Below are positions 19,120 to 47,088 of a stretch of DNA of 64,000 nt, in pieces. Position 1 is the stretch's first letter, and each line of letters begins with the position of its first letter. A model generated the notes under the pieces. It saw nothing but the letters and a program-made list of their open reading frames with translations, searched no databases and was not told the DNA's origin. Source of the DNA: Chloroflexota bacterium (GTDB lineage Bacteria > Chloroflexota > Chloroflexia > Chloroflexales > Herpetosiphonaceae); the NCBI GenBank assembly GCA_020161265.1, contig JAIUOC010000003.1:363024-427023 (forward strand), in the 5' to 3' direction. A program made the position numbers and the translations under genes.

Positions 19120-19139
19120 GCTAGATGTGTTAGGAATGC

Positions 19140-21020: not shown

Positions 21021-21043
21021 TTTTCAGCGCATGGAGCACAGGA

Positions 21044-22639
21044 ATGCAAGCAACACCCGAACTAATTTTGATTGTGGATGATCAAACCACCAATGTGATG
21101 GTGTTACAGCGGATGTTGGAACGCGCTGGTTATGCTACTGCCTGTGCTCGCAGCGGCTTCGAAGCCTTGACCATGCTCGAACAGCAAGTCCCCGATTTGA
21201 TTTTACTTGACGTAATGATGCCGGAAATGGATGGCTACCAGACGTTGCAGGCAATTCGTGAGCGCAACCATCTGCCATTTATTCCAATTATCTTTGTTTC
21301 GGCCAAGCAAACCACCGCCGATACGGTAACTGGGTTGGATTTGGGCGCTGATGATTACGTTACCAAGCCCGTCAATCGTGATGAATTGCTGGCTCGTATG
21401 CGCGTGCTGTTGCGCTTGAAACATACGCGCCGTGCGCTCCATCGGGAACAAGAACGTTTGCGCTTTCTCTATCGGGTTTCGCAAACCTTGCATCGCTCGT
21501 TGGATATTGATCAAGTGTTGCCCGAAGCCTTGAATGCGATCAACGAGCTGTTGGGAGCCAGCCGTGGTAGCGTGTTGCTGCTCGATGATCAAAATCGGGT
21601 TTGGCGGCGGATTCTGTTTCGACCACATTTGCCGCCTGCCGAGGCTGAACAAGCGATTCAGGCGGTGCTACGTGAAGGCTTGGCCTCGTATGCCTTGCGC
21701 ACTGGCGAAGTCCAAATCGTCGAAGATGCCCAAAACGATCCCCGTTGGAAGCATTTTTATGATGATCGTGAGGAAATTGGCTCGGCGCTGGCCTTGCCAT
21801 TACATAATTATGCCCAAAATACGATCATCGGCGTATTTATCTTGGTGCATCCCCAACGTAATTTCTTCCGCACCGAGCTAGAAACCCTGATCAAAGCATT
21901 GACTGATCAATTAAGCGTGGCCTTGACCAATGCGGCGGTCTACACCCGTTTGCGCGAAGCTGAAGATAGCCGCGATGGCTTTATTCAAATGCTGACCCAC
22001 GACTTACGCGCACCGTTGGCAGGCATGGTTGGCTGCTTCGATGCCTTGATGACCACCCAGCTTGATGATGATGGCAAATTGTTTGTCGAGCTTGGCTTTC
22101 GAGCCGGAGCTGCCCAACAACGCCTGATCGACGATTTGCTCGATGTGTATAAGGCTGAGGCTGGGCGTTTGGTGCTTAGCCAGGAAACCACCAGCTTGCA
22201 GCGTTTGGGTGAATTGCTGAGTGAGCAAGTTTTGGGAATTACGGTTGAACAACAACTAAGCTTTGAGCTTGATCTGCCAGCCGAGCCATTGGTGGTGCTT
22301 GATGAGCATAAAATGGTGCGCGTATTGGCCAATTTGGTCAGCAATGGCATCAAATGGACGCGGCCAGGTGGTACAATTCGCGTGGTTGGCACGGTTGATC
22401 AAGCGCAGCAACTGATTACCCTAAACGTCAGCGATACGGGGCAGGGGATTGCTGCCGAAGATATTCCGCATATTTTCGATAAATTTTATCAAGGTCGTAC
22501 TACCGCCCAATCGCGGGGTACTGGGCTGGGCTTGACCTTTTGCAATTTAGCGGTTGGTGCTCATGGCGGCACAATTAGCGTGGATAGCCAAGTAGGCAAG
22601 GGGACGACGGTCACCGTGCAGCTACCTTGGAAGGAGTAA
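21044..22639 (+). CDS. hybrid signalling protein: receiver + GAF + histidine kinase (HisKA/HATPase_c)
   Basis: N-terminal REC (LIVDDQ...LILLDVMMPEMDG...AKQ), GAF-like middle region, H-box MLTHDLRAPL, G-boxes SDTGQGI and GTGLGLT. Confidence 0.85.
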   Translation: MQATPELILIVDDQTTNVMVLQRMLERAGYATACARSGFEALTMLEQQVPDLILLDVMMPEMDGYQTLQAIRERNHLPFIPIIFVSAKQTTADTVTGLDLGADDYVTKPVNRDELLARMRVLLRLKHTRRALHREQERLRFLYRVSQTLHRSLDIDQVLPEALNAINELLGASRGSVLLLDDQNRVWRRILFRPHLPPAEAEQAIQAVLREGLASYALRTGEVQIVEDAQNDPRWKHFYDDREEIGSALALPLHNYAQNTIIGVFILVHPQRNFFRTELETLIKALTDQLSVALTNAAVYTRLREAEDSRDGFIQMLTHDLRAPLAGMVGCFDALMTTQLDDDGKLFVELGFRAGAAQQRLIDDLLDVYKAEAGRLVLSQETTSLQRLGELLSEQVLGITVEQQLSFELDLPAEPLVVLDEHKMVRVLANLVSNGIKWTRPGGTIRVVGTVDQAQQLITLNVSDTGQGIAAEDIPHIFDKFYQGRTTAQSRGTGLGLTFCNLAVGAHGGTISVDSQVGKGTTVTVQLPWKE

Positions 22640-22645
22640 CACCCG

Positions 22646-23356
22646 ATGCCAGCACGATGGCGTATTCTTGTAGTTGATGATGACACGATTATTCGCCGCA
22701 CGCTCGTGAGCAATTTGCTTAACGATGGGTTTGAAGTAATGGCGGCAGAATCAGGCCAATCGGCCTTGACCATGGTCGAAAGTTCATGGCCTGATCTGGC
22801 GATTCTCGATTTGATGATGCCTGGCATGACTGGTTTTGAACTATCCGACCGTTTGCGGCGCTATGTGGAAATTCCAGTGATTATGCTGACCTCGATTTCC
22901 GATGAGGCTACAACTGTACGCGGCCTTGAGCAGCATGCCGATGATTATATGACCAAGCCCTACCGCTACCCTGAATTGCGTGCACGGGTCAATAAACTGC
23001 TGACCAAATCGTATGAAGGTGGCTTGCATCCAGGCGAGTTGGTGGTAATTGACGAAGATCTCTCAGTTAATTTTGGTCAGCATATTCTGTTGCGCAAAGG
23101 TGAGGCAATTCCGTTGGAGCCGATTGAGCTACGGGTCTTGTACTTACTGTTGCAAACACCAACTGTGGCGGTGGCAACCACAACCCTGTTGCGCAAGGCT
23201 TGGGGCTTGGGCGAAGAGGGTGATCAATCCTCGTTGTGGGTGCGAATTCGCTCGTTGCGCACCAAACTTGAGGACAATCCATCAAAGCCAATCTACTTAA
23301 AGACTGTGCGTGGCGTGGGCTATGTGTTCGACGTGCAACCACGGCGCGGCTTGTAA
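22646..23356 (+). CDS. OmpR/PhoB-family response regulator (REC + winged helix)
   Basis: ILVVDDD...LAILDLMMPGMTG. C-terminal trans_reg_C (YLKTVRGVGYVFD). Confidence 0.85.
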   Translation: MPARWRILVVDDDTIIRRTLVSNLLNDGFEVMAAESGQSALTMVESSWPDLAILDLMMPGMTGFELSDRLRRYVEIPVIMLTSISDEATTVRGLEQHADDYMTKPYRYPELRARVNKLLTKSYEGGLHPGELVVIDEDLSVNFGQHILLRKGEAIPLEPIELRVLYLLLQTPTVAVATTTLLRKAWGLGEEGDQSSLWVRIRSLRTKLEDNPSKPIYLKTVRGVGYVFDVQPRRGL

Positions 23357-23423
23357 TCTTACTCGTAAACTTACATTCTTATAGTGGTGGTGATGGTTGC
23401 CCAAATGATCCATCGCTATAAGG

Positions 23424-23756
23424 ATGTTAAGTATGCTAAAGACTGTTTTGCTGGTTGATCCCGACTGGATCACCCGAACGCTCATGAGATATCACCTTCG
23501 CCGGGCAGGCTATACAGTCTACGAAGCCGATTCCTGCACTCTCGCGGCTCAACTGAACGAGCAATATCAGCCAGAATTTATCATCCTTGATGAAGCGATT
23601 TCAACCGAGCACAGCAATGCGCTCAATTGCCGCGATCATCAGAACTATATTTTGCTGACCGATCTGCCGCAACCCCGAACCACTGGCCGTTTGAGCTTAG
23701 CCAAGCCAATTACTGGCCATAATTTAATTAGCCAATTACAAGCCTATCGGGCATAG
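23424..23756 (+). CDS. single-domain receiver (CheY-like) protein, slightly atypical (D-P-D in place of the acidic pair)
   Basis: LLVDPD, phospho-acceptor position IILDE, LLTD, AKP. All the canonical receiver positions can be aligned. Confidence 0.5.
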   Translation: MLSMLKTVLLVDPDWITRTLMRYHLRRAGYTVYEADSCTLAAQLNEQYQPEFIILDEAISTEHSNALNCRDHQNYILLTDLPQPRTTGRLSLAKPITGHNLISQLQAYRA

Positions 23757-23759
23757 GCG

Positions 23760-23997
23760 CTAGGGGTCGGCTATCCGGCGCATAGTTTTGAGCCACGAAG
23801 AACACGCAAATTGTTTTTTGATCCACGAAGAGCACGAAGCACACGAAGGTTAGATTTTTTGCTGTGAATTGCCCGAAACATGTTCCGATAGCCCAAAGCC
23901 TATCGCCATTCAGATCTCTGCGCCTCTGCGTTGAATAGTGTGATCCTCAATTTTTGATGGTTGCTTTCATCCCTCATCCCTCATCCTTCATCCTTAC
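23760..23997. repeat. mosaic intergenic repeat R2 (CACGAAG modules, CTATAGC/CGATAGC module, CTCTGCG module, TCATCCC heptamer array)
   Basis: gagccacgaagaacacg...gatccacgaagagcacgaagcacacgaagg; ccgatagcccaaagcctatcgccat; tctctgcgcctctgcgtt; catccctcatccctcatccttcatcctta. Confidence 0.6.
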
Positions 23998-24138
23998 AAA
24001 TTACTTGCTTTAGTACGCTTGACAGTTGGGCTACCTTGCGACTATGCTAAGCTACGATTTGCTGCTTTAGAACGCGCCATTTGTGATGATTCAATGCTTG
24101 GTTGCTGCTCAATTGAGCCATACAACCATTATTGAATC

Positions 24139-24585
24139 ATGCGGGAGCCTATTGTGAGCCAAGTTGAGGATCAATTGGCGCAATTTGTGGTTTTTATCCT
24201 CGATCAAGAACGGTTTGCTTTGCCAGTTGAGCAGGCGCGTGGCATCGAACGTTGGCGTAATCCAACTCGCATTCCAGGCACTGCAACCGCGATTATGGGG
24301 ATTATCAATCAGCGCGGGGTGCTGCTGACGGTGGTTGATATGCGGGTGGTTTTAGGCATGAAGCCAATTACCCCGACTCGGCGTAGTCGTTTTTTGCTCG
24401 TTCACGAACAGATCGATTGTGCAATCGCGGTTGATCAGGTGATCGATATGTTGACCTTGGATGTGGGTTTGGCTGAGCCAACTCCCCATCGTGGAACGGT
24501 CGCTAGCCGAGGTTTGCTGCCAACGCCGTTTGGGTTTGCAACCTGGCTTGATCTTAATGCCCTACTTGGGTCGATCAATGGTTAA
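24139..24585 (+). CDS. cheW: CheW-like coupling protein 1
   Basis: 148 aa single CheW domain (FVVFILDQERFALPVEQARGIER...GIINQRGVLLTVVDMRVVLG). Confidence 0.8.
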   Translation: MREPIVSQVEDQLAQFVVFILDQERFALPVEQARGIERWRNPTRIPGTATAIMGIINQRGVLLTVVDMRVVLGMKPITPTRRSRFLLVHEQIDCAIAVDQVIDMLTLDVGLAEPTPHRGTVASRGLLPTPFGFATWLDLNALLGSING

Positions 24586-24997
24586 CCCAGTCATTGTCAG
24601 CGATCTTTATCCAGTTAATGTTGGCGATCAAACGATCTTGATTCGCCAAACCGCCTTGGTTGGTGTGGATTATGTTGCCAATAGCGGGCAACCAATTAGT
24701 AGCGTGGTTCAGCAATCTAATCCAATCGATGTCATTGACTTAAATCAGTGGCTCCAGCAGCCAATTGGCCAACAAGCCAATCGCTTAGCCTTATTTGTGG
24801 TTGGGCAAACAGCTATGGGCGTGGTAGTCGATCAATTGGGCGACCCGATTAGCACAGCCTTGAGCCTGCAACCACTGCCAAGCCTAGTTTCCGATAGCTT
24901 GCTCGACCCCAGCATTTTGGGCATTATTATGCTCGATGAACGCCCATGCCTCATGCTTGATCTTGAACTGTTTGTGCTGGTACACGCCAAGCGCTAG
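24578..24997 (+). CDS. CheW-like coupling protein 2 (divergent)
   Basis: About 139 aa. Its ATG at 24578 overlaps the cheW-1 stop (ATGGTTAA). Hydrophobic CheW-like core (LALFVVGQTAMGVVVDQLGDPIS...ILGIIMLDERPCLMLDLELF). The ORF-track start at 24461 is an upstream in-frame extension. Confidence 0.6.
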   Translation: MVNPVIVSDLYPVNVGDQTILIRQTALVGVDYVANSGQPISSVVQQSNPIDVIDLNQWLQQPIGQQANRLALFVVGQTAMGVVVDQLGDPISTALSLQPLPSLVSDSLLDPSILGIIMLDERPCLMLDLELFVLVHAKR

Positions 24998-25019
24998 ACC
25001 AGTGCCAAGGAGTCTGCTC

Positions 25020-26519
25020 ATGGCGAATTTAGGTTCGCTTTTCTCGCTCGATTTTACGAATTTGACTGATCGCCGCCGCGTGATTATGCGGATTGTTGCC
25101 TTGGCTGCCTTGGTTGTGCCTTTTTTAGTGGTCTTGGTGGCGTGGATTTACGAGCGCAATAATCCACAATTGTGGGATGCCCTTGGGGTTTTGTTTGTCT
25201 CGATGGGCGCGGTTTGGTTGATTGCCTTGTTCAGCTTGCGCATGATTAATCAAGGCCAAGATCAAATTGTTACCTATGTTTTAATTGGCACAATTTCGTT
25301 GTCAGCCTTGGCTTGTGCCGTGCGCTATGGCGGCATCGATCAAAGCCTGATTGTCTCGCTGTTGCTGGTGATGCTGTTTATTGTCGGTTTGGTCGCAACA
25401 TGGCGCGAAATTGTCTCGTATGGCGTTGCGATTACCTTAGCGTATGGTCTGTTATTACTGCTCAAGGGCAACCTTGAATCATTTCGAGTGACAACCCTGA
25501 CCGCTGCCAATAACGCCGGGGTCTATGGCGTTGGGGCGGTGCTGTTTTTTGTTGGCTTGGCTACCACGATTGTCCTGACCACGATTTTTAGCCGTGCTTT
25601 GGCTGAATATTCGCAAAAAAGTGAGCAATGGACAGCCGATTTGATGCGGGCCAATGAGCAGTTGATCGAGAAAAATATTCAGCAGATCGAGCTTGGCACT
25701 GATCTTTCGTTTGCCGCTACCGAATTATCGGCAGCCTCGCAACAACAAGCTTCGGGGGCAACTGAGCAAGCCTCGGCTGTGGCAGAAGTTTCATCAACCA
25801 TCGAAGAATTGGGCTTTACAGCGCGACAAATCGCTAGTGCCTCGGATCAAGTCAGTATTGCCGCTCAACAAACCTTGACCTCGTTGGCCATGGGCCAGCA
25901 ATCGGTTGATGAAGCGATTCAAGGTATGGAGCGGATCAAGCAGCGGGTACAAGAGGTTTCTTCGCGAGTTTTGAGCTTGGGCGAACGTTCGCATCATATT
26001 AGCGAAATTATTGCCTTGATCGATGATGTTTCCGATGAAACCCACCTGCTGGCCTTGAATGCGGCGATTGAAGCGGCTGGAGCTGGCGAACATGGCCGCC
26101 GATTTGCCGTAGTTGCCGCCGAAGTCAAGAGCTTGGCCAATCGTACTTTGGCGGCTTCGCGCGAAGTTAAAGATGTGATTGCCGAAATTCAGGCTGCGAC
26201 CAACGCCTCAGTGCTGGCCACCGAAGAGAGCGTCAAAGAAGTCGAACAAGGGGTCAGCTTGGCTCATCGTGCTGGCCAAGAGATGGATTCAATTGTGGTT
26301 TTGGGCGAACATACTGCCCAATTAGCCCAAGAAATTAGCCTAGCAACCGCTCAACAACAAACTGCATCGGAGCAAGTTGTTGAAACCATGCGTGAAATTG
26401 CCGAAGTCTCACGTCAAACGGCGGCTGGTTCGCGCCAAACTGCCGACGCTGCATCCAAACTCACCGCGATTGCAAATCGCTTGCATTCGTTGGTCAACAT
26501 TGATGCCAATACACGCTAA
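25020..26519 (+). CDS. methyl-accepting chemotaxis protein with a multi-TM (about 6 helices) N-terminal module and no periplasmic or HAMP domain
   Basis: Start MANLGSLFSL. About 200 aa of consecutive hydrophobic helices, then the MCP signalling domain (LLALNAAIEAAGAGEHGRRFAVVAAEVKSLANRT). Confidence 0.85.
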   Translation: MANLGSLFSLDFTNLTDRRRVIMRIVALAALVVPFLVVLVAWIYERNNPQLWDALGVLFVSMGAVWLIALFSLRMINQGQDQIVTYVLIGTISLSALACAVRYGGIDQSLIVSLLLVMLFIVGLVATWREIVSYGVAITLAYGLLLLLKGNLESFRVTTLTAANNAGVYGVGAVLFFVGLATTIVLTTIFSRALAEYSQKSEQWTADLMRANEQLIEKNIQQIELGTDLSFAATELSAASQQQASGATEQASAVAEVSSTIEELGFTARQIASASDQVSIAAQQTLTSLAMGQQSVDEAIQGMERIKQRVQEVSSRVLSLGERSHHISEIIALIDDVSDETHLLALNAAIEAAGAGEHGRRFAVVAAEVKSLANRTLAASREVKDVIAEIQAATNASVLATEESVKEVEQGVSLAHRAGQEMDSIVVLGEHTAQLAQEISLATAQQQTASEQVVETMREIAEVSRQTAAGSRQTADAASKLTAIANRLHSLVNIDANTR

Positions 26520-26534
26520 GCGAGGAGCTATCGC

Positions 26535-28844
26535 ATGGGCGGTTTTGATTTATCAGCATTTTTTGGCCAGTTTCGCGAAGAAACTGAAGAGAATGTGCGG
26601 GCCTTGACCACAGGCTTATTGGCCTTGGAGTCAAACCCAGGCGATCGCGAAGCGATTGATACGATTTTTCGGGCGGCACATACGATCAAAGGCTCGGCGC
26701 GCATGCTGGGTCAAGTCGATATGGGTCGTTTGGCACATACCATGGAAAGTTTGCTTTCGGCCTTGCGCAGTGGCATGCTAGCCATGAATTCGAGCATTAA
26801 CGATGTGCTGCTGGCCAGTGTTGATGTGCTGCTAGTGCTGAATTCCCAAGTCAACGAGCCGCCGCCAACCGATCCCAACGTTGATCGTTTGGTGGAGCAA
26901 CTGAATGCCTTGGCGGCTGGTGAAAGCTTGCCGACTGCGCCAATAGCGCCTAAAGCTGCGCCAATTGTCGCGCCAGTGGCCGAACCAGAACCTGAGCCAG
27001 CGCCAGTTGTGCTTGAGCAACCCAAGCCCGAACCAGTGGTTGCTAAGCCAGCCGTGCCTGCCAAACCCAAAAAATCAGCCTCAGCCGAAGCCCCCAAGCC
27101 AGTGATTAGCACTCGTTCGACCGTGCGTGTGCCAATTTCGCGCTTAGATCGGTTGTTGAATACCGCTGGTGAGTTGGTGGTGACCCGTCAATTGCACCTT
27201 GAGCATGTCGCCGATCTTGAGGCTTTGGATAAATTGCTGACCAAAAGTGAGCGCCTGAGCCAACAATTGAGCGAGCGCTTGACGGGCCAACGCGTGACCT
27301 TTCAGCAACGGCGCGAGGCCAGCGAATTAGCCAGCCAACTGCAAAATCTGGCCCAATCGACGCGCAATCAGTTGCGCTTGCTCACCGAGCGTTGGAGCAG
27401 CCATAGCGCTGCTAGCGAGGCCTTGGTCGATGAACTTGAAGCCGAGGTCATGGCGACCCGTTTGCAACCTGTGGCTGGTTTGTTTGCGCCAATTCCTCGG
27501 GCCGTGCGCGAGCTGGCTCGTTCGTTGGGCAAAGAAGTTAACTTAATCACCGAAGGCGAAACCACCGAGGCCGACCGCAAAGTGATTGAGTTAATGGCTG
27601 ATCCGTTGGTACATTTGGTGCGCAACGCGCTTGATCATGGCATCGAAAGCCCCGATGAGCGTGTGAAAGCTCACAAGTCTGCCGAAGCAAGCTTGCGTTT
27701 AGAAGCTCGCTCGTTGGGCGGCACAATTGAAATTATTATCAGCGACGATGGCCGTGGAATCGATCCAGCAGTGATTCGGGCAACTGCAATTAAACGGGGA
27801 ATTATCGAGGCTGATGCCGCGACTCGCTTGCGTGATGAAGAAGCTTTGGAGTTAATCTGGCAGCCTGGTTTTTCCACCAGCGCAATCATCACCGATGTTT
27901 CAGGCCGTGGCGTGGGCATGGATGTGGTGCGGGCGGCAGTGACCGAGGTTGGCGGGCGGGTCGATGTGCATTCGGTGCTTGGCCAAGGCACGACCTTCAC
28001 GCTGATTTTGCCAATTACCTTGCTGACCACGCGCGTGTTGTTATTTGATGTGGCTGGCACGACCTATGCCTTGCCCTCGACCGCCTGTTTAGGTGGGCGG
28101 CGGGTTGCTGGCGGGCAAATTCAGACCGTCGAAGGGCGACCAACCGTACGGGTTGATGAGCGCAGCGTGAGCATTGTAGCGCTTGCGCCCTTGCTTGAGC
28201 AGCGCGGCCCCTTGCCACAACCATCGGATATTTCCAATTTGGTGATTTTGGGGCCAGCTAATCGCCCATTGGCCTTGCTTGTCGATAAATTGGTCGATGA
28301 ACGTGAGGTGGTGGTTAAATCGTTGGGCGCGTTGTTGAACGAACAGCGTTTATGCACTGGTGCGATTGCCCTGCCTGATGGGCGTTTGGTGTTAGTGCTC
28401 AATCCCTTGGCGATTGCGGCGCGGGCGCGTGAATGGGGCAAACCAGTCGCTTTGCCAGCGCCAACCAAGCTCCAACCCGCCAAATTATTGGTCGCGGAAG
28501 ATTCATTTACCACCCGCGAACTACTTCGCTCAATGCTGCAATCGGCGGGCTATGTGGTTGAAACGGCGATTAACGGCCAAGATGCGCTTGACAAGCTCAA
28601 TCACAATTCCTACGATCTGCTGGTAAGCGATGTTGAAATGCCGTTGCTAACTGGCTTTGAGCTAACCCGCCGTGTGCGTGCCCATGACCGTTTGCGCCAA
28701 CTGCCAATTATCATTATCACCAGCTTGGCCCGCGATAGCGATCGGCGTGAAGGCTTGTTGGCTGGTGCGCAAGCCTATATCGTCAAAAGCCAGTTTGATC
28801 AAAGCAACTTGCTCGAAACGATTCATCAATTACTTGGTCGCTAA
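26535..28844 (+). CDS. cheA: CheA histidine kinase fused to a C-terminal receiver (CheA-REC hybrid)
   Basis: P1 Hpt (FRAAHTIKGSARMLG), Pro/Ala/Glu-rich linker, HATPase (SDDGRGID, GRGVGMDVV, GQGTTF), P5 CheW-like, C-terminal REC (LLVAEDS...LLVSDVEMP...KS). Confidence 0.9.
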   Translation: MGGFDLSAFFGQFREETEENVRALTTGLLALESNPGDREAIDTIFRAAHTIKGSARMLGQVDMGRLAHTMESLLSALRSGMLAMNSSINDVLLASVDVLLVLNSQVNEPPPTDPNVDRLVEQLNALAAGESLPTAPIAPKAAPIVAPVAEPEPEPAPVVLEQPKPEPVVAKPAVPAKPKKSASAEAPKPVISTRSTVRVPISRLDRLLNTAGELVVTRQLHLEHVADLEALDKLLTKSERLSQQLSERLTGQRVTFQQRREASELASQLQNLAQSTRNQLRLLTERWSSHSAASEALVDELEAEVMATRLQPVAGLFAPIPRAVRELARSLGKEVNLITEGETTEADRKVIELMADPLVHLVRNALDHGIESPDERVKAHKSAEASLRLEARSLGGTIEIIISDDGRGIDPAVIRATAIKRGIIEADAATRLRDEEALELIWQPGFSTSAIITDVSGRGVGMDVVRAAVTEVGGRVDVHSVLGQGTTFTLILPITLLTTRVLLFDVAGTTYALPSTACLGGRRVAGGQIQTVEGRPTVRVDERSVSIVALAPLLEQRGPLPQPSDISNLVILGPANRPLALLVDKLVDEREVVVKSLGALLNEQRLCTGAIALPDGRLVLVLNPLAIAARAREWGKPVALPAPTKLQPAKLLVAEDSFTTRELLRSMLQSAGYVVETAINGQDALDKLNHNSYDLLVSDVEMPLLTGFELTRRVRAHDRLRQLPIIIITSLARDSDRREGLLAGAQAYIVKSQFDQSNLLETIHQLLGR

Positions 28845-28894
28845 AGTAGCGCCGCCCGAATCAAGGCTTATCTGCCCCTGCGAGGAGTTTTTCA

Positions 28895-29254
28895 ATGAGT
28901 GAACGTATCTTAGTTGTTGACGATAGCAAACTGGTTACCGATATTGTCAAAATGCGGCTGGAAATGTATGGCTATGCTGTCGATTTGGCCTACAGTGGCG
29001 AGGAAGCGCTGCAAAAAATCGGCGATCTCACGCCCGATTTGGTAGTGTTAGATGTGCAGATGCCTGGGATTGATGGCTATGAGGTTTGCCGTCAGTTACG
29101 CGCCAATCCCTTGTTTGAAGAGCTGCCAATTATCATGCTAACATCGATGGATGATAAACGGGCAGGCTTTGAAGCTGGAGTTGACGATTATCTCAACAAA
29201 GATCTCGATTTGCTCGATTTGCCTAATCGGGTCAAATTGTTGTTGGGTATGTAA
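28895..29254 (+). CDS. cheY: CheY-like single-domain response regulator
   Basis: ILVVDDS...LVVLDVQMPGIDG...LTSMDDK. Confidence 0.85.
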   Translation: MSERILVVDDSKLVTDIVKMRLEMYGYAVDLAYSGEEALQKIGDLTPDLVVLDVQMPGIDGYEVCRQLRANPLFEELPIIMLTSMDDKRAGFEAGVDDYLNKDLDLLDLPNRVKLLLGM

Positions 29255-30336
29255 TGATGACAGGGCCGCTTGCACCAATTCGAGTGTTGGTTGTTGATGA
29301 TTCGGCGGTTTCGCGCCGAGTCATCAGCACTATTTTAGCCAATGATCCCGCGATTCAAGTGGTTGGCGAGGCCCGTGATGGCCGTGAGGCGGTGCAATTG
29401 GTGGCAGCGTTGCAACCCGATATTATCACAATGGATGTGCGCATGCCGGTGATGGATGGTTTGCAGGCCACCGAAGAAATTATGGCCTATCATCCTACGC
29501 CGATTTTGGTGATCACCTCATCGCTGACCCGCCATGATCGTAATTTAACCTTTCAAATGCTCAACGCCGGAGCTTTGGAAGTTTGGGAGAAACCAACCGA
29601 CCTGACCCTAGCTCAAGGCGAAGCTAATCGGATGCGGCTGTTGGAGCGGGTCAAGGTGCTTTCACGAGTTAAAGTGTTGACCCATTTGCGCGGGCGACGG
29701 CGCAAATCGCCAACGACCGAAACCAACATTCCCTTATTATTGGCCTCGGCTAGCCCGCCAAGCCAACGCTGGCTGATTGTGGTTGGGGCTTCGACTGGCG
29801 GCCCACGAGTGTTATACAAACTCCTGCATAGCCTGCCTGCGAGCATCCCCGCAAGCATTATCATTGTGCAGCACATCGCCGAGGGATTTGTTGGTACAAT
29901 GGTAGACTGGTTGGACAATCATTCGCCCTTGACGGTGGAATTGGCGCAACACCGGGGTAGTTTGAAAAATGGCCATGTCTATGTTGCGCCCGATACCCAT
30001 CACTTGCGGGTTGATGCCAACTGGACGGTACATTTGGAAACTGAACCCGATAATTTGCTCTATCCATCAGTCGATGTGACTATGCAATCAGCTGCCAAAG
30101 TGTTGCCGAAACAGACGATCGGGGTGTTATTGACTGGTATGGGTCGCGATGGAGCGCAAGGTTTGTTGGCTTTACGCCGCTCTGGCGCTCGCACGATCGC
30201 CCAAGATCGAGCCACTAGCGCGATTTGGGGCATGCCACGGGCGGCAGAGGAAGCTGGGGCTGCCATGGAATTTTTAGCTGCTGATCTGATTGCGCCGCGT
30301 TTGGTGGCGTTGCTCAGCGAAACTGAACGTCGATGA
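29254..30336 (+). CDS. cheB: CheB protein-glutamate methylesterase (REC + CheB_methylest)
   Basis: Its start overlaps the cheY stop (TAATG). REC domain plus esterase motifs GASTGGP, HIAEGF and GMGRDGA. Confidence 0.9.
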   Translation: MMTGPLAPIRVLVVDDSAVSRRVISTILANDPAIQVVGEARDGREAVQLVAALQPDIITMDVRMPVMDGLQATEEIMAYHPTPILVITSSLTRHDRNLTFQMLNAGALEVWEKPTDLTLAQGEANRMRLLERVKVLSRVKVLTHLRGRRRKSPTTETNIPLLLASASPPSQRWLIVVGASTGGPRVLYKLLHSLPASIPASIIIVQHIAEGFVGTMVDWLDNHSPLTVELAQHRGSLKNGHVYVAPDTHHLRVDANWTVHLETEPDNLLYPSVDVTMQSAAKVLPKQTIGVLLTGMGRDGAQGLLALRRSGARTIAQDRATSAIWGMPRAAEEAGAAMEFLAADLIAPRLVALLSETERR

Positions 30337-31793
30337 GCGAGTTGAGCACTGAACAATGGATGATCATCCGCGATTATCTAGCTCAACGGGCTGGCTTATA
30401 TCTCGATGATAGCCGCATGCGCCAAGGCCGCATGCTCGTTCAGGAGCGTTATCGGCAATTACAAATTAGCCCCGCTGCCTATACATTGCGAATTCAAGAC
30501 CCCACCAATGGCGGCGAGTTGCAATGGTTGGCTGAACGCTTGGCTAACCATGAAACCCAATTTTTTCGCAACCCTGCCCATTTTCGGGCCTTACGTGAGC
30601 ATATTCTGCCTGAATTGCAGCGTTCGCGCTCGCCGTTGCGGCCATTGCGCTGTTGGAGTGCTGGTTGCTCAACTGGCGAGGAACCCTATAGCATGGCCAT
30701 GGTTGCCTTGCAACAATGGGGCAATCCGCCGAGCCGCCCGATTTCGATTTGGGCTACCGATTTGAGCAATGTGCCGTTGGAGCGAGCGATTGCCGCCGAG
30801 TATCGTGGTCGTTCGCTAACGAATGTGCAAGCCGACTACAGACAATGGTTTGAACCGCAATCCAACGGAGCGTTGCGTGTCAGCGAAGCCGTGCGATCCT
30901 TGGTACAATTTGAACAGCACAATTTGCTTGATGCCCTGCCACATTGGGCCTATCAACTTGATGTGGTATTTTGCCAGAATGTCACGATCTATTTTCAGCT
31001 GGAAACATGTCGCCAATTGATCGAACGGATTTATGCGGCGATGGCGGTTGGTGGCTATCTGCTCTTGGGCTTTTCCGAGTCGCTGTGGGGCATTTTTGAT
31101 CGCTTTGAAACGGTCGAGGTGGCTGGGGCGTTTATCTATCGCAAAGGCGATGGTCAACCTAAACCACGCCCCAACTTGAGCGAACGACCAATCACCAAGC
31201 CGCTGAATAAGCCAGCCGAGCCAATACCAGCGCGGCCACGCCCAAGTACGCGGCCATTAGCGCCAGCTAGCCCAAGCAAGCCGCCCGATGTGACGAGTTT
31301 GTTGGATGAAGCGCGGAAATTGCGTGGCCAAGGCCAGCAGCGACGTGGATTAAGCCTGTTGGCGAGTATTGCGCCCAACCAGCGCCAGCCAGCAATTTTG
31401 GCTTTAGCCGCGCAATTGCACGCCGATCTTGGGCAGCATGAGCAAGCGGCGGCTGAGGCGCGGCGGGCATTAGAGCTTGATGTGCTGCAAGATGCTGCCT
31501 ATGTCGTGCTGGGCATGATCGAACTTAACCAAGGCGCATGGGATAAAGCGATTAATTATCTTGAGCGAGCCAGCTATTTAGTGCCCGATTCGCCGACGAT
31601 TGCCTTTCATTTAGCTGAGAGCTATCGCCATCAAGGGCGAGCAACCGCCGCTTTACGTTATTATCAACATGCCTTGCGCAAATTGGCCCAACATTCAAGT
31701 AGCACGGTTATTGATGGAATTGCCGTGGGGTGGCTGCGTTCTGCTTGTGAACGCTGGATTGGCGGCTTAGAAGCCAGCCAAGGAACATTCTAA
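30333..31793 (+). CDS. cheR: CheR methyltransferase with C-terminal TPR repeats
   Basis: ATGA overlap with cheB. SAM-binding CWSAGCSTGEEPYSMAM. A Pro-rich linker, then TPR repeats. Confidence 0.85.
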   Translation: MSELSTEQWMIIRDYLAQRAGLYLDDSRMRQGRMLVQERYRQLQISPAAYTLRIQDPTNGGELQWLAERLANHETQFFRNPAHFRALREHILPELQRSRSPLRPLRCWSAGCSTGEEPYSMAMVALQQWGNPPSRPISIWATDLSNVPLERAIAAEYRGRSLTNVQADYRQWFEPQSNGALRVSEAVRSLVQFEQHNLLDALPHWAYQLDVVFCQNVTIYFQLETCRQLIERIYAAMAVGGYLLLGFSESLWGIFDRFETVEVAGAFIYRKGDGQPKPRPNLSERPITKPLNKPAEPIPARPRPSTRPLAPASPSKPPDVTSLLDEARKLRGQGQQRRGLSLLASIAPNQRQPAILALAAQLHADLGQHEQAAAEARRALELDVLQDAAYVVLGMIELNQGAWDKAINYLERASYLVPDSPTIAFHLAESYRHQGRATAALRYYQHALRKLAQHSSSTVIDGIAVGWLRSACERWIGGLEASQGTF

Positions 31794-31797
31794 AACT

Positions 31798-32892
31798 ATG
31801 CAAAAAGCACAATCAGCAATCTATAGTTCACTGCTCAGTCACCGCGCCCAAGGTCGTGTGGCGGTTCCGCTTGAGCCACCAGTGCCAACCCCGCCCGCAG
31901 CGCCTGAACCCGACCAACGCCAAGCTGAGCTGGAACAAGATTTGCAATTGGCGCGAGATTTGCAACAGGGCTTGATGCTCGAAACCGTGCCGCGCCTGCC
32001 TGGCTGGGAAATGAGCGCGGTCTCATTGCCAGCGCGTGAGCTTGGTGGCGACCTCTATGATTTTCTGGCGGTCAACGGCTCGCAGGGAATTATGATTGGC
32101 GATGTGAGCGGCAAAGGCTTGCCTGCGGCCTTGCGGATGGCAGTAGCACGAACCGTGTTTCGGGCTGAAGTGCGACGCGGCCAATCGCCAGGCCAAACCT
32201 TGGCAGCGGTGAATAATATTTTGATCGAAGAAATGCCCCAAGGCATGGTTACGATGCTCTATGCATTAATCGACCCGCAAACAGGCATGATGCACTTGGC
32301 CAATGCTGGTCACAATTATCTGATTGTGATCAATAATCAAGTGATTGAAATCGAAACGTCAGGTGTGCCACTTGGGGTTATGGAAATTGATTGTTATAGT
32401 GAATCCATCTTACAACTGAACTATGGCGATTCAGTCATGTTGTACACTGATGGTATTGTTGAAGCGACCAACGAACACCAAGTATTGTATGGCTACCCGC
32501 GTTTTCAAAGCCTGTTACAAGCAGTTGGCCATCTCAAGCCACGCGCCTTGATGGCCCGCGTGCTGAGCGAAGTTCGCGCCTGGACTCAAGGCCAGCTTAA
32601 ACACGATGATGTGACGATGGTGCTGGTACGGCGGCGCTTGGCAAATTTGCTTGATGAAATGCATAGCATTGTGGCCGATGTGGTTGGGCCAATCACTGCT
32701 GACGAGTGGTGGCAAGCCTTGAACTTGGTTGGCACAACCCGCACGCCCGACCAATGTCTAGAGTTATTGCGCCCACTGAATGAAATGGTATCCAGCCAAT
32801 TTGGCCGTGGGATTGCCCGTGAACTCCAAGCGCAATTGCGCCCAGTGATCGAAGAATATCGCTTGCTCCAATCCACCAAAGGATCGTCCTAA
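31798..32892 (+). CDS. PP2C-family (SpoIIE/RsbU-like) serine phosphatase
   Basis: GGDLYDF...IGDVSGKGLPAALRMA...YTDGIVEA...DDVT, the SpoIIE/PP2C metal-binding motifs. Confidence 0.8.
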   Translation: MQKAQSAIYSSLLSHRAQGRVAVPLEPPVPTPPAAPEPDQRQAELEQDLQLARDLQQGLMLETVPRLPGWEMSAVSLPARELGGDLYDFLAVNGSQGIMIGDVSGKGLPAALRMAVARTVFRAEVRRGQSPGQTLAAVNNILIEEMPQGMVTMLYALIDPQTGMMHLANAGHNYLIVINNQVIEIETSGVPLGVMEIDCYSESILQLNYGDSVMLYTDGIVEATNEHQVLYGYPRFQSLLQAVGHLKPRALMARVLSEVRAWTQGQLKHDDVTMVLVRRRLANLLDEMHSIVADVVGPITADEWWQALNLVGTTRTPDQCLELLRPLNEMVSSQFGRGIARELQAQLRPVIEEYRLLQSTKGSS

Positions 32893-32902
32893 GGGAACTG
32901 TT

Positions 32903-34459
32903 ATGACTACCAATGTTGACACTTTGAATGTAATGCCGCTGGACCTCGATACCTTTGCTGGGAGCGAGCGTTTTATGGCTGGGACGCGCTTGGGTGCTGC
33001 GTTTGGGCGCGGGATCAAAGCCTATTTGGCCGCCAATTATCCTGATGCAATCGAGCATTTTAAAACTGCATTAATCGCTGCCTATGTTGAAGGCGATGAG
33101 AAATCGCAAATCTACGATCGCGAACGGGCGATTATCTATCTGTATATTGGTAATGCCTGTGCTTTTCAAGATGATTGGCCGACGGCTCAGCGCGAATATT
33201 TGGAATCGGTACAAACCGACCCGCAATTAGCCGAAGCCCACTACAATTTAGGTGTGGCTTTCGGCGCGATGCGCCAAATTGATCGGGCAATTGGCGCATT
33301 CAAGGAAGCGCTTGAGCATAATAATGGCTTGTACGAGGCCCATTTTGCGCTTGGTCGCGCTTATCAAATGCTCGATGATGCTGGCCGCGCCTATATTCAC
33401 TTTACTTCAGCTCGTGAATTGCGGCCTTATGCTGGCGAGCCTTTGTATTACATGGGTTTGATGCACCAAGCTCATGGTGCTCACGAATTGGCTCAGCGTT
33501 GTTTTGCCGAGGCGCTACGGGTTGAGCCAACCTTTATCTCGCCCAGCGTTGGCCCCGATGAAGTGCTGGTCAGCAAATCCGAGCAAGAGGTTGCCAATTG
33601 GTACTATCGTTTGAGTGACGACCTCAAAGCCCAAGGTTATGATGAAGATGCCAAGCGGATTTACGAGGCCTTGCTGAAATGGCGACCAACCGAGCATCGT
33701 GCCCGCTATTTGTTGGGCAATTTGTTGGCGCGGGCGCGGCGCTGGGAATTATCCTTGCAAGAATATGGCCGAATTCCACCGCAAGATCGCTACTATGTTG
33801 ATGCGCGGCTGCGGATCAGCGCAATTTTACGCTTTCAGGGCAAGCATCGTGAGGCCTATAACCATTTGTATAGCACCGCCAAGTTGCGGCCCAACGATGG
33901 TCAAGTGTTCTTACAAATGGGCAAGTTGCTCTATGATTTAGAGAAACATCATGCTGCGATGCGTGCTTTTGAACGCGCGGTCCAACTTTTGCCCAAAGAT
34001 CCCAATGCCTACTATTTATTGGGATTTATGTACACCGTGTTGGGGCATGAAAGTTGGGCACTAGCAGCCTGGCGTAAAGCGGTGGAGTTAGCGCCGCATG
34101 CGCATTCATTGCGCTACGATTTGGGTTATATGTACACCCGCCGCCGTCGCTACGATTTGGCTTCGCGTGAATTTAGCCATGTGCTGATGCATTGGCCCGA
34201 TGATATTGAAACCACCTTTATGCTGGGTACATGTTATAAAGAAATGTTAGAACCAGCCCAAGCCATACCATTATTTGAAAAAGTGCTGCGCCGCAACCCA
34301 CGCCATACTCAAGCACTCTACTATTTGGGGGCATGTTATCTCCAAGTTGGCAACAGTTCTTTGGGTAAGGCCTACCTGCGCCGCTATGAACATCTGATCA
34401 ACCAACAGGAACAATTACCACAAAAGGGCCGTGCAATGGCTCGTGGAGGTTCGCGATGA
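32903..34459 (+). CDS. TPR-repeat protein
   Basis: 518 aa of consecutive 34-residue TPR units (AHYNLGVAFGAMRQIDRAIGAFKEALEHNNG...). Confidence 0.75.
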   Translation: MTTNVDTLNVMPLDLDTFAGSERFMAGTRLGAAFGRGIKAYLAANYPDAIEHFKTALIAAYVEGDEKSQIYDRERAIIYLYIGNACAFQDDWPTAQREYLESVQTDPQLAEAHYNLGVAFGAMRQIDRAIGAFKEALEHNNGLYEAHFALGRAYQMLDDAGRAYIHFTSARELRPYAGEPLYYMGLMHQAHGAHELAQRCFAEALRVEPTFISPSVGPDEVLVSKSEQEVANWYYRLSDDLKAQGYDEDAKRIYEALLKWRPTEHRARYLLGNLLARARRWELSLQEYGRIPPQDRYYVDARLRISAILRFQGKHREAYNHLYSTAKLRPNDGQVFLQMGKLLYDLEKHHAAMRAFERAVQLLPKDPNAYYLLGFMYTVLGHESWALAAWRKAVELAPHAHSLRYDLGYMYTRRRRYDLASREFSHVLMHWPDDIETTFMLGTCYKEMLEPAQAIPLFEKVLRRNPRHTQALYYLGACYLQVGNSSLGKAYLRRYEHLINQQEQLPQKGRAMARGGSR

Positions 34460-34875
34460 ATCGGATTCACCTCAACATTCCATCGGATTTGGTCTTTGAG
34501 CGGGTTGTGCGAGCTAGTGCTGCCGAACTCGGTAGCACAATGGGCTTTCCACGTGAGCGCGTCGAAGATTTGAAACTGGCGGTGAGCGAAGCAGTAACCA
34601 ATGCTATCGAGCATGGTGGCGGCGGCGGTGTGGCTGGCTCGGTCGAAGTGATTTTCTCGTTGCATGCCGATCAGTTAGAAGTTGAAATTATTGATCATGG
34701 CAAAGGCATCGAGCATTTCAATACCGAACGGCGGGTGGTCGAGGAAGATAATCTCGAAGCGGGCATGCTGCGCGGTTTCGGCTCCTATCTCATCAGCGAG
34801 TTGGTTGATCAATACGAAGTGCAAAGCTCAGGCACAGGCACAAGTTTGCGCTTACGAATTTTCAAAGCGAAGTAG
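34456..34875 (+). CDS. RsbW/SpoIIAB-like anti-sigma-factor Ser kinase (GHKL ATPase, HATPase_c_2)
   Basis: ATGA overlap with the TPR gene. N-box EAVTNAIEHG, G1 DHGKGI, C-terminal GFGSYLI. 139 aa. Confidence 0.7.
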   Translation: MNRIHLNIPSDLVFERVVRASAAELGSTMGFPRERVEDLKLAVSEAVTNAIEHGGGGGVAGSVEVIFSLHADQLEVEIIDHGKGIEHFNTERRVVEEDNLEAGMLRGFGSYLISELVDQYEVQSSGTGTSLRLRIFKAK

Positions 34876-35075
34876 GGAGCAGGGGTCAGAATTCAGGGGT
34901 TAGGCTTCAGGAAACACGGCTATAGGCGCTAGGCTAGCGGAACAATTTGTGGAATGACAATGATCTCAAAAAGCCAAAAGCCTATAGCCGCTAGCCTATG
35001 GATTAAATGCCGATCCCTCGCCCCCGGCATTCCACTAGTCCCTGATCCCTCGCCCCTCGTCCCTAGCCCCCTAAG
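34876..35075. repeat. mosaic intergenic repeat R3
   Basis: gggagcaggggtcagaattcaggggttagg; ggctataggcgctaggctagcgg ... aaaagccaaaagcctatagccgctagcctatgg; ccgatccctcgcccc...ccctgatccctcgcccctcgtccctagcccc. Confidence 0.6.
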
Positions 35076-35099
35076 CCACCGTATAATGGAGAACATTGC

Positions 35100-36623
35100 A
35101 TGCAGCGCCGACGATGGATATTAATCGCAATCAGCCTGACGCTGCTTCTAGCGAGTGCTGGCTTGAGTTTAGCTCGCACAACTGGCCTGTTGGATGACCC
35201 GAATTGCACAACCAGCGATTGTACGTTTTTACCGTTGGCCTTGAAAAATTCTAGTGAAATTACGCCAATGCCAACAAATGCGGCAACCGCAACCAGTGTG
35301 ATGCTCTCGCCAACTGCAACATCGAGCACTACCCCAACCGCCGCGCCAACCGCAACCAGTACCTCAACTAATGTGCCAACTGCGACGAACACCGCAACCG
35401 ATGTGCCAACCGCGACGAACACACCAACTGCTGTACCAACCGCAACCAGTACGCCAACCGACGTGCCAACTGCGACCAATACACCAACTGATGTGCCAAC
35501 CGCGACCAACATACCAACTGATGTGCCAACCGTGACCAACACACCAACCCATACATCAACGCCAACGAGTACATCAACCCATACATCAACGCCGACCAGC
35601 ACGGCTACGGCAACCCCACGTCCACCAACCACCACCCCAACCACGATTGTGGGTACGGCGACCCCAACCACACCGCCCAACTTCACACGGATTGTTTGGT
35701 CTACGGCTGTGCCAACACCATTTAGCTATCCTTTTGCGGCGGTTGAAGCTCAAGGCGCAGTGGTTGGCGGCAAATTGTATGTCTTTGGTGGCTTCGGTCA
35801 GCCTGGTTTATCGGGCGATACACCCTCGCGCTTGTCGAACGTGTATGATCCAGTGGCCAATACCTGGACAGCGATTGCGCCCTTGGAGCGAGGTTTGACT
35901 CACGTTGGTACTGCCACCGATGGTCAAAAGATCTTCCTTGTTGGTGGCTATATTGAAGATTTTGATGGAGTTGGCCAGATTTTCGGCTCACGGGTTTCGC
36001 GCTATTACGACACCGCCACCAATACCTACACCAACTTGCCGGTGATTCCGATTCAACGGGCGGCGGGCCAGCTGTATTATCTTGATCGGAAGTTGCATTA
36101 TGTTGGTGGAACCTATTACAAACAGGTTGATGTTGGCACGCATTTTGTGCTCGATTTGAATGATTTGGCGACTGGTTGGGTGACCCAGACCAACCAACTA
36201 ACCTATGCCGAGTTGCCCAATCCACGTCAACATGCTGGTGGGGTGGTGCTTGATGGCAAACTCTACTATATTGGCGGTCAGCATGGCCACGATGGTAGTT
36301 TAACCGTCGATAACGATGTGCATCGCTATGATCCCGCTACGAATATGTGGGAACAAATGGCCGATATTCCGTTGGCCTTGAACCATATTAGCCATTCGAC
36401 CTTGGCGCTTGGCGGTAAAATTTTCGTCTTTGCTGGCCAAACCACCAACGGAACTAAACATAATACGATTTATGTGTATGATCCGGCCACGAATACTTGG
36501 GCACAAATGCCTAACAACTTGCCAGCAACCCGTTATTCAGGCATTATTGGCGAGATTAATGGCACGTTGTATTTCACGACTGGCGGCGGAACCAACAGCT
36601 ATCGTGGAATTCCCACACCATAG
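35100..36623 (+). CDS. secreted/surface protein with signal anchor, Thr/Pro-rich repeat linker and C-terminal Kelch (galactose-oxidase-like) beta-propeller
   Basis: N-terminal hydrophobic segment. ([10 protein letters not shown])n linker. Kelch signatures [50 protein letters not shown]. Confidence 0.75.
35340..35601 (+). repeat. in-frame tandem repeat: about 7 x 30 bp (encoding [10 protein letters not shown]) followed by 2 x 27 bp (HTSTPTSTS)
   Basis: Direct reading: ccaactgatgtgccaaccgcgaccaacaca units with point variants. Confidence 0.8.
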
Positions 36624-38662: not shown

Positions 38663-38935
38663 GATGAGACTGGATAGCGCAGAGACGCAGAGGATTCGAG
38701 GGGCTAGGATTCAGAATTTAACGGAGAGACGCAGAGGATTCGAGGGGCTAGGATTCAGGGGTCACAGGGGCTGGAAATTTAAGCATAATCATATAAATCT
38801 GGGTCAATCTGTGGCTAAAAATAAAACTTCGCGATCTTCGCGCCCTTCGTGGTTTCAACCCTCGCACCCTTCGTGTCCTTCATGCGCTTCGTGGATCGAT
38901 ATTCATTCGCTGGCCTGGGTTAATATTGAGGAGAT
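38653..38935. repeat. mosaic intergenic repeat R4, including a 45-bp direct duplication and the conserved CTTCGYG element
   Basis: agagacgcagaggattcgaggggctaggattcag occurs twice (38681-38714 and 38726-38759). cttcgcgatcttcgcgcccttcgtggtttcaaccctcgcacccttcgtgtccttcatgcgcttcgtggatcg at 38828-38900. Confidence 0.6.
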
Positions 38936-38939
38936 GTAG

Positions 38940-39443
38940 ATGAACATAACAATTGTTGATGGCTTTACTCCAACCAATGAGGCTGAAGTTGCGGCTTTTG
39001 AGCAAGAGTTGGGCTGTCGTCTGCCAGAAGATTACCGCGCTTTTTTGCTACAACATAACGGCGGTCAGCCTGAGCTAACAGTTTTTGATATGAATAGTAA
39101 CTTGCTGCCTGATGATCAAAGTATAATCCACTATTTTTTATCCTTAGACCCAGCAGCGGAATCCTCTGAAATTCGTCAAGTAATCAGAACATTTACAGAA
39201 TATGAGACGCGGATTCCACCAGAGCTTTTGCCAATTGCCCACGATCTTGGAGGCAACCTAATTTGCTTGGGAATTCGTGGCGAGCAGCGGGGCAAAGTTT
39301 ATTTTTGGGATCATGAATTTGAGCTAGAAACTGAAGAAGAAGGCGATCTGTATTACAACGTTTCGTGTTGTAGCCCTTCATTTCAAGCATTCGTTGATAG
39401 CTTGTTGCCTGAATCCTCGCTTGATGTTGACGAGGCAGCATAG
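38940..39443 (+). CDS. SMI1/KNR4 (SUKH-1) family protein, immunity-protein-like
   Basis: 167 aa. LPEDYRAFLLQHNGG, IGD-like LGGNLICLGIRGEQRGKVYFWDHE, acidic C-terminus. AT-richer than its surroundings. Confidence 0.75.
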   Translation: MNITIVDGFTPTNEAEVAAFEQELGCRLPEDYRAFLLQHNGGQPELTVFDMNSNLLPDDQSIIHYFLSLDPAAESSEIRQVIRTFTEYETRIPPELLPIAHDLGGNLICLGIRGEQRGKVYFWDHEFELETEEEGDLYYNVSCCSPSFQAFVDSLLPESSLDVDEAA

Positions 39444-42487: not shown

Positions 42488-42527
42488 CCCTCCAAAATGC
42501 TTGAATGGTTTACAAGGAGATGTGATT

Positions 42528-47086: not shown

Positions 47087-47088
47087 CC

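Follow-up and report, generated by a model that had tools for sequence, protein, structure and literature searches.

We analysed a 64,000-nt stretch of a Herpetosiphonaceae (Chloroflexota) genome, hereafter the window, to which the nucleotide and residue positions given below refer, and focused on a chemosensory (Che) operon at 24139-34875 and on the set of partner-switching genes at its 3' end. This region consists of ten tightly packed, co-directional open reading frames (ORFs) of the + strand, encoding in this order CheW, a divergent CheW, a methyl-accepting chemotaxis protein (MCP), a CheA fused to a receiver (CheA-REC), CheY, CheB, a CheR with a tetratricopeptide repeat tail (CheR-TPR), a PP2C phosphatase, a TPR protein of 518 aa and an RsbW-like kinase. 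Pfam directly names nine of them, and the ORF map and Pfam domains bear out the ten genes where the original prediction had placed them.

Four of the junctions are stop/start overlaps of 8, 1, 4 and 4 nt (ATGGTTAA, TAATG, ATGA and ATGA), exactly as first quoted. The remaining five are gaps of 22, 15, 50, 4 and 10 nt, with GGAG-type ribosome-binding sites at three of these gaps, so that the description of all ten genes as translationally coupled was overstated. The PP2C gene begins just 4 nt after cheR, which leaves no room for a terminator that would set the last genes apart from the Che genes. Pattern scans for promoters and terminators gave counts that were not clearly above those of shuffled sequences (for terminators, 26 matches in the region against 18.5 +/- 4.1), and a single site was retained, i.e. 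TTGACA-18 nt-TATGCT at 24019-24048 (+), about 90 nt upstream of cheW. It is the best sigma-70-like match of the region (10/12) and lies within 82 nt that are 100 % identical among three Herpetosiphon species, compared with about 87 % for coding DNA; we infer that it serves as the promoter of the operon.

The cluster opens with a CheW coupling protein of 148 aa (24139-24585; PF01584, E = 1e-21), which is kept as first gene of the cluster. The following ORF (24578-24997, 139 aa), which overlaps the cheW stop codon through ATGGTTAA, has no Pfam match of its own even at E <= 1, but PF01584 matches eight of its nine positional orthologues (best E = 2.5e-15), the profile of these orthologues finds E. 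coli CheW (PDB 2ho9, E = 1e-5) and an ORF of the same size occupies this position in the clusters of other genomes. Its initial naming as a second CheW is thereby borne out, as a divergent one. The MCP (25020-26519, 499 aa; MCPsignal, E = 1e-37) most likely starts at 25020, a start preceded by AAGGAG and shared with public assemblies, and not at the ORF-maximal position 24936. Its hydropathy profile displays six hydrophobic segments within residues 25-189, predicted to be membrane helices; neither a periplasmic nor a HAMP domain, nor any recognisable ligand-binding domain, was detected by Pfam and hydropathy. Next come the hybrid kinase CheA (26535-28844, 769 aa), with five Pfam domains (Hpt, dimerisation, HATPase_c, CheW and a receiver at residues 652-763), and the single-domain CheY (28895-29254, 119 aa; Response_reg, E = 2e-27). 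The methylesterase CheB, which also carries a receiver (29254-30336, 360 aa; CheB_methylest, E = 9e-57, and Response_reg), overlaps cheY by TAATG, and the methyltransferase CheR (30333-31793, 486 aa; CheR, E = 7e-51) overlaps cheB by ATGA and ends in a tail matched by TPR_2 and other TPR families at residues 356-455. The core set of MCP, CheA, CheW, CheR and CheB is thus present in the Pfam results (the second CheW through its orthologues), and no CheD was found by Pfam among the ten genes.

Three features of this locus are those of alternative cellular function (ACF) pathways: the window lacks flagellar and type IV pilus genes, CheR is fused to TPRs and CheA carries a receiver. The remark that no motility genes lie nearby proved true of the gene map across the whole 64 kb. 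The orthologous CheAs of H. geysericola, H. llansteffanense, Chloroflexus, Roseiflexus and Oscillochloris are listed as 'cheaACF' in a survey that counts one CheA per Herpetosiphon genome (PMC10782961 Table S2). In an earlier survey every Chloroflexi pathway was classed as ACF, and the CheR-TPR fusion was described as typical of ACF pathways and present in about 80 % of the Chloroflexi, a group devoid of flagella and of an ordinary CheR (PMC3447774). The ACF assignment made at the outset agrees with both sources and is supported for this operon, the class being taken from the orthologous CheAs and not from the CheA of the window itself. The operon probably represents the only chemosensory system of Herpetosiphon species.

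The three genes downstream of cheR belong to other families. The first (31798-32892, 364 aa) encodes a soluble PP2C phosphatase of the SpoIIE/RsbU type (PF07228, E = 2e-46). Its AF2 model (pLDDT 81.6) comprises a disordered N-terminus, a helix at residues 37-60, the catalytic domain at 70-279 and a confidently modelled C-terminal four-helix domain at 284-362. The top Foldseek matches of this model are the RsbU domain of Rv1364c, SiaA, RssB and SpoIIE; they span the catalytic domain and are uninformative on the C-terminal helical domain. The metal-binding aspartate motifs GGDLYDF, GDVSGKG, YTDG and DD, which hold D85, D102, D218, D270 and D271, are invariant in 15-64 orthologues. The last gene (34456-34875, 139 aa), whose start overlaps the TPR gene by ATGA, encodes a GHKL serine kinase resembling RsbW and SpoIIAB (HATPase_c_2, PF13581, E = 1e-25), with RsbW (6m36, E = 4.5e-14) and SpoIIAB as its closest relatives; it is identical to the kinases of H. 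aurantiacus and H. gulosus, and 58 orthologues retain its N, G1 and G2 ATP-binding boxes. The domain scan therefore upheld both family assignments, on which the notion of a partner-switching end of the operon had depended. The scores fall short of the NCBIfam equivalog cutoffs, with 79.9 bits against 145 for RsbW, 67.4 against 135 for SpoIIAB, 30.2 against 114.75 for SpoIIAA and 29.1 against 490.8 for SpoIIE.

Between these two genes lies that of the 518-aa protein (32903-34459; identical to MCA0352117.1 of a metagenome-assembled Chloroflexi genome), which is matched by Pfam TPR families and modelled by AF2 (pLDDT 87) as two TPR arrays, at residues 29-207 and 227-503, with no other domain. A fold search returned only generic TPR superhelices (OGT, SPY and APC/C, TM-scores 0.2-0.4) and gave no functional clue. 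Among 1.84 billion representative proteins, only two clusters of full-length, collinear homologues were found, all other matches being repeat-level similarity to giant TPR proteins. The N-terminal peptide (residues 1-28, encoded by 32903-32990) is predicted to be disordered, and its segment L13-F24 (LDLDTFxGSERF, including Thr17 and Ser21) is invariant across both clades of homologues, which makes this peptide a candidate docking motif or phospho-site.

To assess the distribution of the operon, 64 Chloroflexia loci (L004-L067) were gathered around orthologues of the PP2C; they come from Herpetosiphon, Roseiflexus, Chloroflexus, Oscillochloris, Kouleothrix, Viridilinea and many metagenome-assembled genomes (MAGs). 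Wherever the loci were long enough, the order CheW-CheW'-MCP-CheA-CheY-CheB-CheR-PP2C-TPR-GHKL was retained. Since the identical order recurs in about 60 other genomes, the ten-gene arrangement is not a chance one. Five loci end too early for the gene after the kinase to be assessed; in 57 of the 59 others the kinase is directly followed by a gene for a STAS protein of 108-122 aa, which strongly supports the original view that the operon ends in an RsbU/RsbW-type partner switch. In H. aurantiacus, where STAS adjoins the kinase gene, the genes have the accessions ABX03370-ABX03380. Median identities of orthologues across Chloroflexales to the window proteins are highest for CheY (76 %), the most conserved protein of the cluster, followed by the TPR protein (72 %), STAS (71 %), the kinase (58 %), the MCP (53 %), the PP2C (51 %), CheB (48 %), CheA (45 %), CheR (44 %) and CheW (39 %). 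Across 58 sequences, Ser57 of STAS, the ATP-binding boxes of the kinase and the metal ligands of the PP2C are each at least 98 % conserved. Our literature search, whose coverage excluded most subscription journals, retrieved no description of the Chloroflexia PP2C-TPR-kinase-STAS module; Herpetosiphon genome papers mention merely 'an entire chemosensory system' (PMC6210107). We also observed that in most Chloroflexales (31-34 loci) two conserved genes lie 0.3-2 kb after STAS, one for a receiver that consists of a single domain (58-82 % identity) and one for a REC-GAF-HD_5 protein of the HD-GYP type (e.g. L026:13671-14096 and L026:14362-15954), and that this is not the case in Herpetosiphon or Roseiflexus. 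These genes hint at a c-di-GMP branch of the pathway.

A partner switch requires a STAS antagonist, and none was found within the window, either by tblastn with two orthologues (E <= 10) or by Pfam searches of small ORFs. The 139-aa ORF at 24578-24997 was considered as the missing STAS protein and ruled out, its orthologues matching CheW in Pfam and PDB profiles. The cognate STAS gene proved to lie in the same genome at window-equivalent positions 65387-65752 (+), i.e. about 1.4 kb past the end of the window and 30.5 kb downstream of the kinase; the suggestion to search the genome for STAS proteins was in this respect rewarding. Its product is a single-domain protein of the PF01740 family, and in the alignment its Ser57 takes the position of the phospho-serine in SpoIIAA and TM1442. 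In accession order STAS (MCA0352146) comes 27 genes after the kinase (MCA0352118) on the same contig of 604,596 bp, and the accessions of H. gulosus show an equal spacing. A contig that is 100 % identical to positions 56320-64000 of the window (L085) extends past genes for a histidine kinase and an OmpR regulator and reaches STAS, and STAS is found on another contig of the same sample with the downstream genes that it has in relatives.

The genome thus appears to lack the antagonist because a segment of about 30.4 kb, from 34886 through the end of the window at 64000 and on to window-equivalent position ~65250, has split the locus. The nearest genomes, Herpetosiphon sp. NSE202 and H. giganteus DSM 589, are 87 % identical at the nucleotide level over 23966-34887; synteny with them ends at 34885/34887, about 10 nt past the stop codon of the kinase, and is resumed at window-equivalent position ~65251. 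A direct repeat of 112 bp, whose copies are 86 % identical, brackets the segment (34914-35025 and window-equivalent 65122-65233). The segment holds about 27 genes, has no unusual GC content, is shared with H. gulosus as judged from the accession spacing and is absent in four other Herpetosiphon species. Upstream of STAS, a TTGCCA-17-TATGAT site is conserved in all three Herpetosiphon versions, so that separate expression of STAS is possible; in the present genome the gene is probably transcribed from this putative promoter of its own.

The second cluster of TPR homologues (49 % identity, 550-660 aa, about 14 sub-clusters) comes from unplaced lineages, hereafter the sister clade, for which sequences were available from GCA_038323095.1, GCA_038245615.1 and two metagenome contigs. 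A Lon fragment from this clade is 54 % identical to the Lon of the window and was uninformative for taxonomy. The quartet here has the order kinase, STAS, PP2C, TPR. At two loci it stands alone (L087:6940-11938 and L091:7279-11962), with no Che gene within 10 kb (L087/L088 and L091). At two others (L089:7313-20333, with L090, and L092:6337-19778) it is directly followed by CheW, CheW, Hpt, Hpt, CheA-REC, CheY, CheB and CheR-TPR, a cluster without an MCP gene whose CheY is 60 % identical to that of the window. As the quartet occurs alone or beside Che genes in two arrangements, PP2C, TPR protein, kinase and STAS are best regarded, on the strength of gene neighbourhoods, as an evolutionary unit. 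The TPR protein accompanies kinase, STAS and PP2C even where Che genes are absent and is thus an obligate fourth member of the module; its treatment as an incidental gene of the operon is not borne out. The PP2C of the sister clade differs from the soluble Chloroflexia enzyme in having an N-terminal multi-helix membrane domain and no C-terminal helical domain. The membrane sensor of the PP2C is therefore missing exactly where MCP-containing Che genes have been fused in, i.e. in Chloroflexia. Homology of this membrane domain to the six-helix domain of the MCP, which would have pointed to a possible transfer of the sensor, was rejected, the only matches being compositionally biased ones of 12-14 bits, which are not significant.

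These data also bear on whether the PP2C-TPR-kinase genes have any relation to the Che genes. Only the existence of the quartet alone and the displacement of STAS by 30 kb without its loss speak, indirectly, for two unrelated neighbouring units. Mere adjacency is extremely improbable given an order kept in about 60 genomes from all six genera named above, a PP2C gene that starts 4 nt after cheR, and the independent joining of these units in a second arrangement in the sister clade.

Taken as a whole, the locus is best explained, in our view and with moderate confidence, by a Che pathway of the ACF class that feeds a terminal partner-switching module. Starting from the gene content, the catalytic and phospho-acceptor motifs, the class-wide synteny, the module as a unit and the displaced STAS described above, we infer the protein-protein steps, the direction from Che to switch and the final target as follows. 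The six-helix MCP, the two CheW and the hybrid CheA-receiver kinase would form a sensing complex adapted through methylation by CheB and CheR-TPR, and CheA would phosphorylate the stand-alone CheY. Phosphorylated CheY (CheY~P) would then alter the activity of the soluble PP2C, either directly, e.g. via its C-terminal four-helix domain, or with the TPR protein as intermediary. The PP2C would strip the phosphate placed on Ser57 of STAS by the RsbW-like kinase, and unphosphorylated STAS would bind the kinase, displacing or releasing its other partner. The TPR protein may be the scaffold of the module or may itself be the regulated partner, in the place taken by the sigma factor in Bacillus. That the kinase phosphorylates STAS, that the PP2C dephosphorylates it and that free STAS binds the kinase is the established behaviour of these families; the conserved motifs and the closest solved relatives suggest that the same chemistry applies here.

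Three observations led us to place the Che system on the input side, namely where the module is located, how short the junction is (4 nt) and that the PP2C lost its membrane sensor where the MCP-containing Che operon was fused. Several points weigh against this proposal. The evidence for a direction of signalling consists of gene order and of the lost membrane domain. The PP2C has neither a receiver domain in Pfam nor a known CheY-binding element, so the link from Che to PP2C is not visible in the sequence. The sister-clade PP2C keeps its own membrane sensor even beside Che genes, and the Che system and the switch could be acting in parallel. Two MAG contigs have no TPR protein, kinase or STAS after the PP2C: L040 (2703-9053) and L046 (11057-21056) keep CheW through PP2C and then run for at least 6 kb without these three genes, as the result of either a further rearrangement or a mis-assembly. 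As for the target, sigma control may be one option and motility control another.

The same observations can be read in the opposite direction, with the switch as an input or feedback device. PP2C, kinase and STAS, together with the TPR protein, would respond to the state of the cytoplasm or the membrane and in turn modulate the array of receptor and CheA, and the output would be exerted by CheY~P on another target, such as the gliding machinery or, in Chloroflexales, on the neighbouring REC and REC-GAF-HD-GYP proteins, whose genes are conserved after STAS. An MCP without recognisable ligand-binding domain, a PP2C without receiver, and a sister clade whose PP2C carries a membrane sensor of its own and whose adjacent Che cluster is devoid of an MCP gene would all suit such a scheme, and in Campylobacterota a chemoreceptor has been proposed as the target of a STAS protein (PMC9239204). 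But the module occurs without Che genes in L087 and L091 and so must have a target of its own, the loss of the PP2C membrane sensor coincides with the fusion of an MCP-containing operon upstream, which fits Che as the input, and Chloroflexia carry the module at the 3' end. We therefore hold this reversed direction to be quite improbable.

As regards the output, the original prediction pointed to a sigma factor or another STAS-regulated target. The partner switch itself is supported, and sigma control is only one option, as no sigma gene accompanies the module locally: no sigma-70-family ORF was found within 10 kb in the 64 Chloroflexia loci or in the 64-kb window (SigF and RpoE queries, Pfam-checked), and no sigma factor gene is present in the gene tables of four sister-clade loci. 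In canonical anti-sigma control the kinase would sequester a sigma factor encoded elsewhere, which dephosphorylated STAS would free, so that the Che pathway would control a regulon (stress, development or predation), with the TPR protein as a mere accessory scaffold. The best matches of the kinase are indeed anti-sigma factors, namely RsbW (6m36, solved with SigB) and SpoIIAB, and the CrsR/CrsA switch linked to Che1 in Shewanella controls RpoS (PMC9855816). However, no sigma gene turned up in the local DNA that the searches covered, though one farther away may exist, and in Bacillus that gene belongs to the operon itself; the kinase scores below the NCBIfam cutoffs for RsbW and SpoIIAB; and the constant presence of the TPR protein, which is more conserved than the kinase, would be left unexplained. 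Control of a sigma factor is thus rather unlikely.

Apart from the TPR protein, the module has no constant extra member, and this, together with the lack of a local sigma gene, favours a non-sigma output with the TPR protein as scaffold or partner. A more specific proposal is that the quartet constitutes a distinct, undescribed partner switch in which the TPR protein, and not a sigma factor, is captured and released by the switch or phosphorylated on the DLDTFxGSERF peptide, and that this TPR switch is the arm by which the single Che pathway of the class steers gliding reversals, aggregation or predatory swarming. Both parts taken together, this remains a tentative and, on present data, unlikely combination. 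Chloroflexia such as Chloroflexus, Roseiflexus, Oscillochloris and Herpetosiphon are filamentous gliders without flagella.

Partner switches have been linked to chemosensory clusters before. Ancestral ('stage 1') F7 clusters of gamma-proteobacteria carry STAS and serine-phosphatase genes (PMC7184735), and the Che1 locus of Shewanella oneidensis holds the CrsR/CrsA partner switch for RpoS (PMC9855816). The F7 systems (Che1-CrsR/CrsA of S. oneidensis, F7 of V. cholerae and P. aeruginosa) share with the present operon a full Che cluster, two CheW-like genes, and STAS and a serine phosphatase within the locus. They differ in the class of CheA (F7 there, ACF in the orthologues here) and in CheD, present there and absent here. 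CrsR is one receiver-PP2C-kinase fusion that can be phosphorylated directly, whereas PP2C and kinase are here separate and without receiver. The 518-aa TPR protein is obligate here, the host class is a gliding one without flagellum, and the operon is apparently the sole Che system in Herpetosiphon. Furthermore, the Shewanella switch has a non-motility output (RpoS), and no sigma target is known for the Chloroflexia operon. The latter thus works like the F7/CrsR system without being a member of it. What was already known is the association of Che with STAS and phosphatase genes in gamma-proteobacteria; what is new is the class-wide, TPR-containing ACF version in Chloroflexia and its split in this genome.

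Three other systems are informative. The RsbU-RsbV-RsbW-SigB and SpoIIE-SpoIIAA-SpoIIAB-SigF switches of Bacillus subtilis likewise combine a SpoIIE-family PP2C, a HATPase_c_2 kinase and a single-domain STAS with a phospho-serine. Unlike them, the present locus has no sigma gene, includes an extra TPR protein and scores below the NCBIfam cutoffs, and the proposed input is a Che pathway instead of RsbT and the stressosome or cell-division cues. In Bacillus cereus (PMC4574943), RsbK-RsbM-RsbY resembles the operon in that its partner switch is set off by a PP2C, which receives its input from a phosphorelay and a CheR-like methyltransferase; its sensor is a hybrid kinase and not an MCP/CheA/CheW array, RsbY has a receiver and the target is SigB. 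Nostoc punctiforme, another filamentous glider, has a Che-like system (Hmp) and an Rsb-like switch (HmpU/HmpV/HmpW) in which STAS acts on a non-sigma target and the STAS gene is separately regulated, as it probably is here (PMC6495340, PMC8256260). This likeness is functional and drawn from the literature; Hmp and the Rsb-like switch are described as separate systems, Hmp governs type IV pilus motility and no TPR member has been described. Since partner switches can control motility, as HmpU/V/W do, the assertion that the operon has a partner-switching 'rather than' a motility output is not demonstrated.

What has been vaguely annotated as a 'chemosensory system' thereby becomes a fixed, class-wide pathway of 11 genes with four candidate output proteins. 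It represents a second, independent lineage, beside the gamma-proteobacterial F7 systems, with a Che array connected to a partner switch, which suggests that this coupling is a recurrent design, and it brings to light a TPR-containing partner switch that also occurs alone.

Several other features of the window were recorded. The stretch directly upstream of the operon (16534-23756) encodes a Ser/Thr kinase-FGE-sulfatase fusion, an ABC-F protein, a REC-GAF-HisKA-HATPase kinase and an OmpR regulator, as well as a degenerate receiver (23424-23756) that Response_reg matches in its N-terminal half only (E = 2.5e-4). The window shares this set of genes with the two closest Herpetosiphon genomes only. 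Within the 30.4-kb segment, a LodA-like gene (L-lysine epsilon-oxidase family) and four genes for FAD-dependent monooxygenase/halogenase-like proteins (42501-49883) may constitute a cofactor-maturation or small-molecule cluster. The segment also encodes a Kelch-repeat protein with a long Pro/Thr-rich linker (35100-36623, +), opposite which a 207-aa antisense ORF (35063-35686, -) looks like a mirror artefact of this low-complexity linker, a SUKH/SMI1 protein (38940-39443), a caspase-like Peptidase_C14 (40510-41406), a membrane GGDEF diguanylate cyclase (55686-57008) and a MoxR-DUF58-DUF4129 triad (59641-63076). The sole RNA gene found, a tRNA-Ser(GGA) at 52494-52584 (-), is located inside the segment and not at its edge. 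Intergenic tandem repeats of the heptamer CCTCATC (10 matches against 0.09 expected) and of the nonamer CACGAAGNN (14 against 0.06) are scattered over the window, a first set of sites being 6954-6975, 23965-23993, 53249-53270 and 58903-58931 and a second set 7080-7096, 23793-23848, 38836-38894, 39473-39540, 52339-52410 and 58740-58756. A 91-aa ORF that overlaps such repeats (38664-38939) is probably not a gene. The same CCTCATC and CACGAAGNN repeats fill the spacer between kinase and STAS in H. giganteus, and they may mark spacers that are prone to rearrangement.

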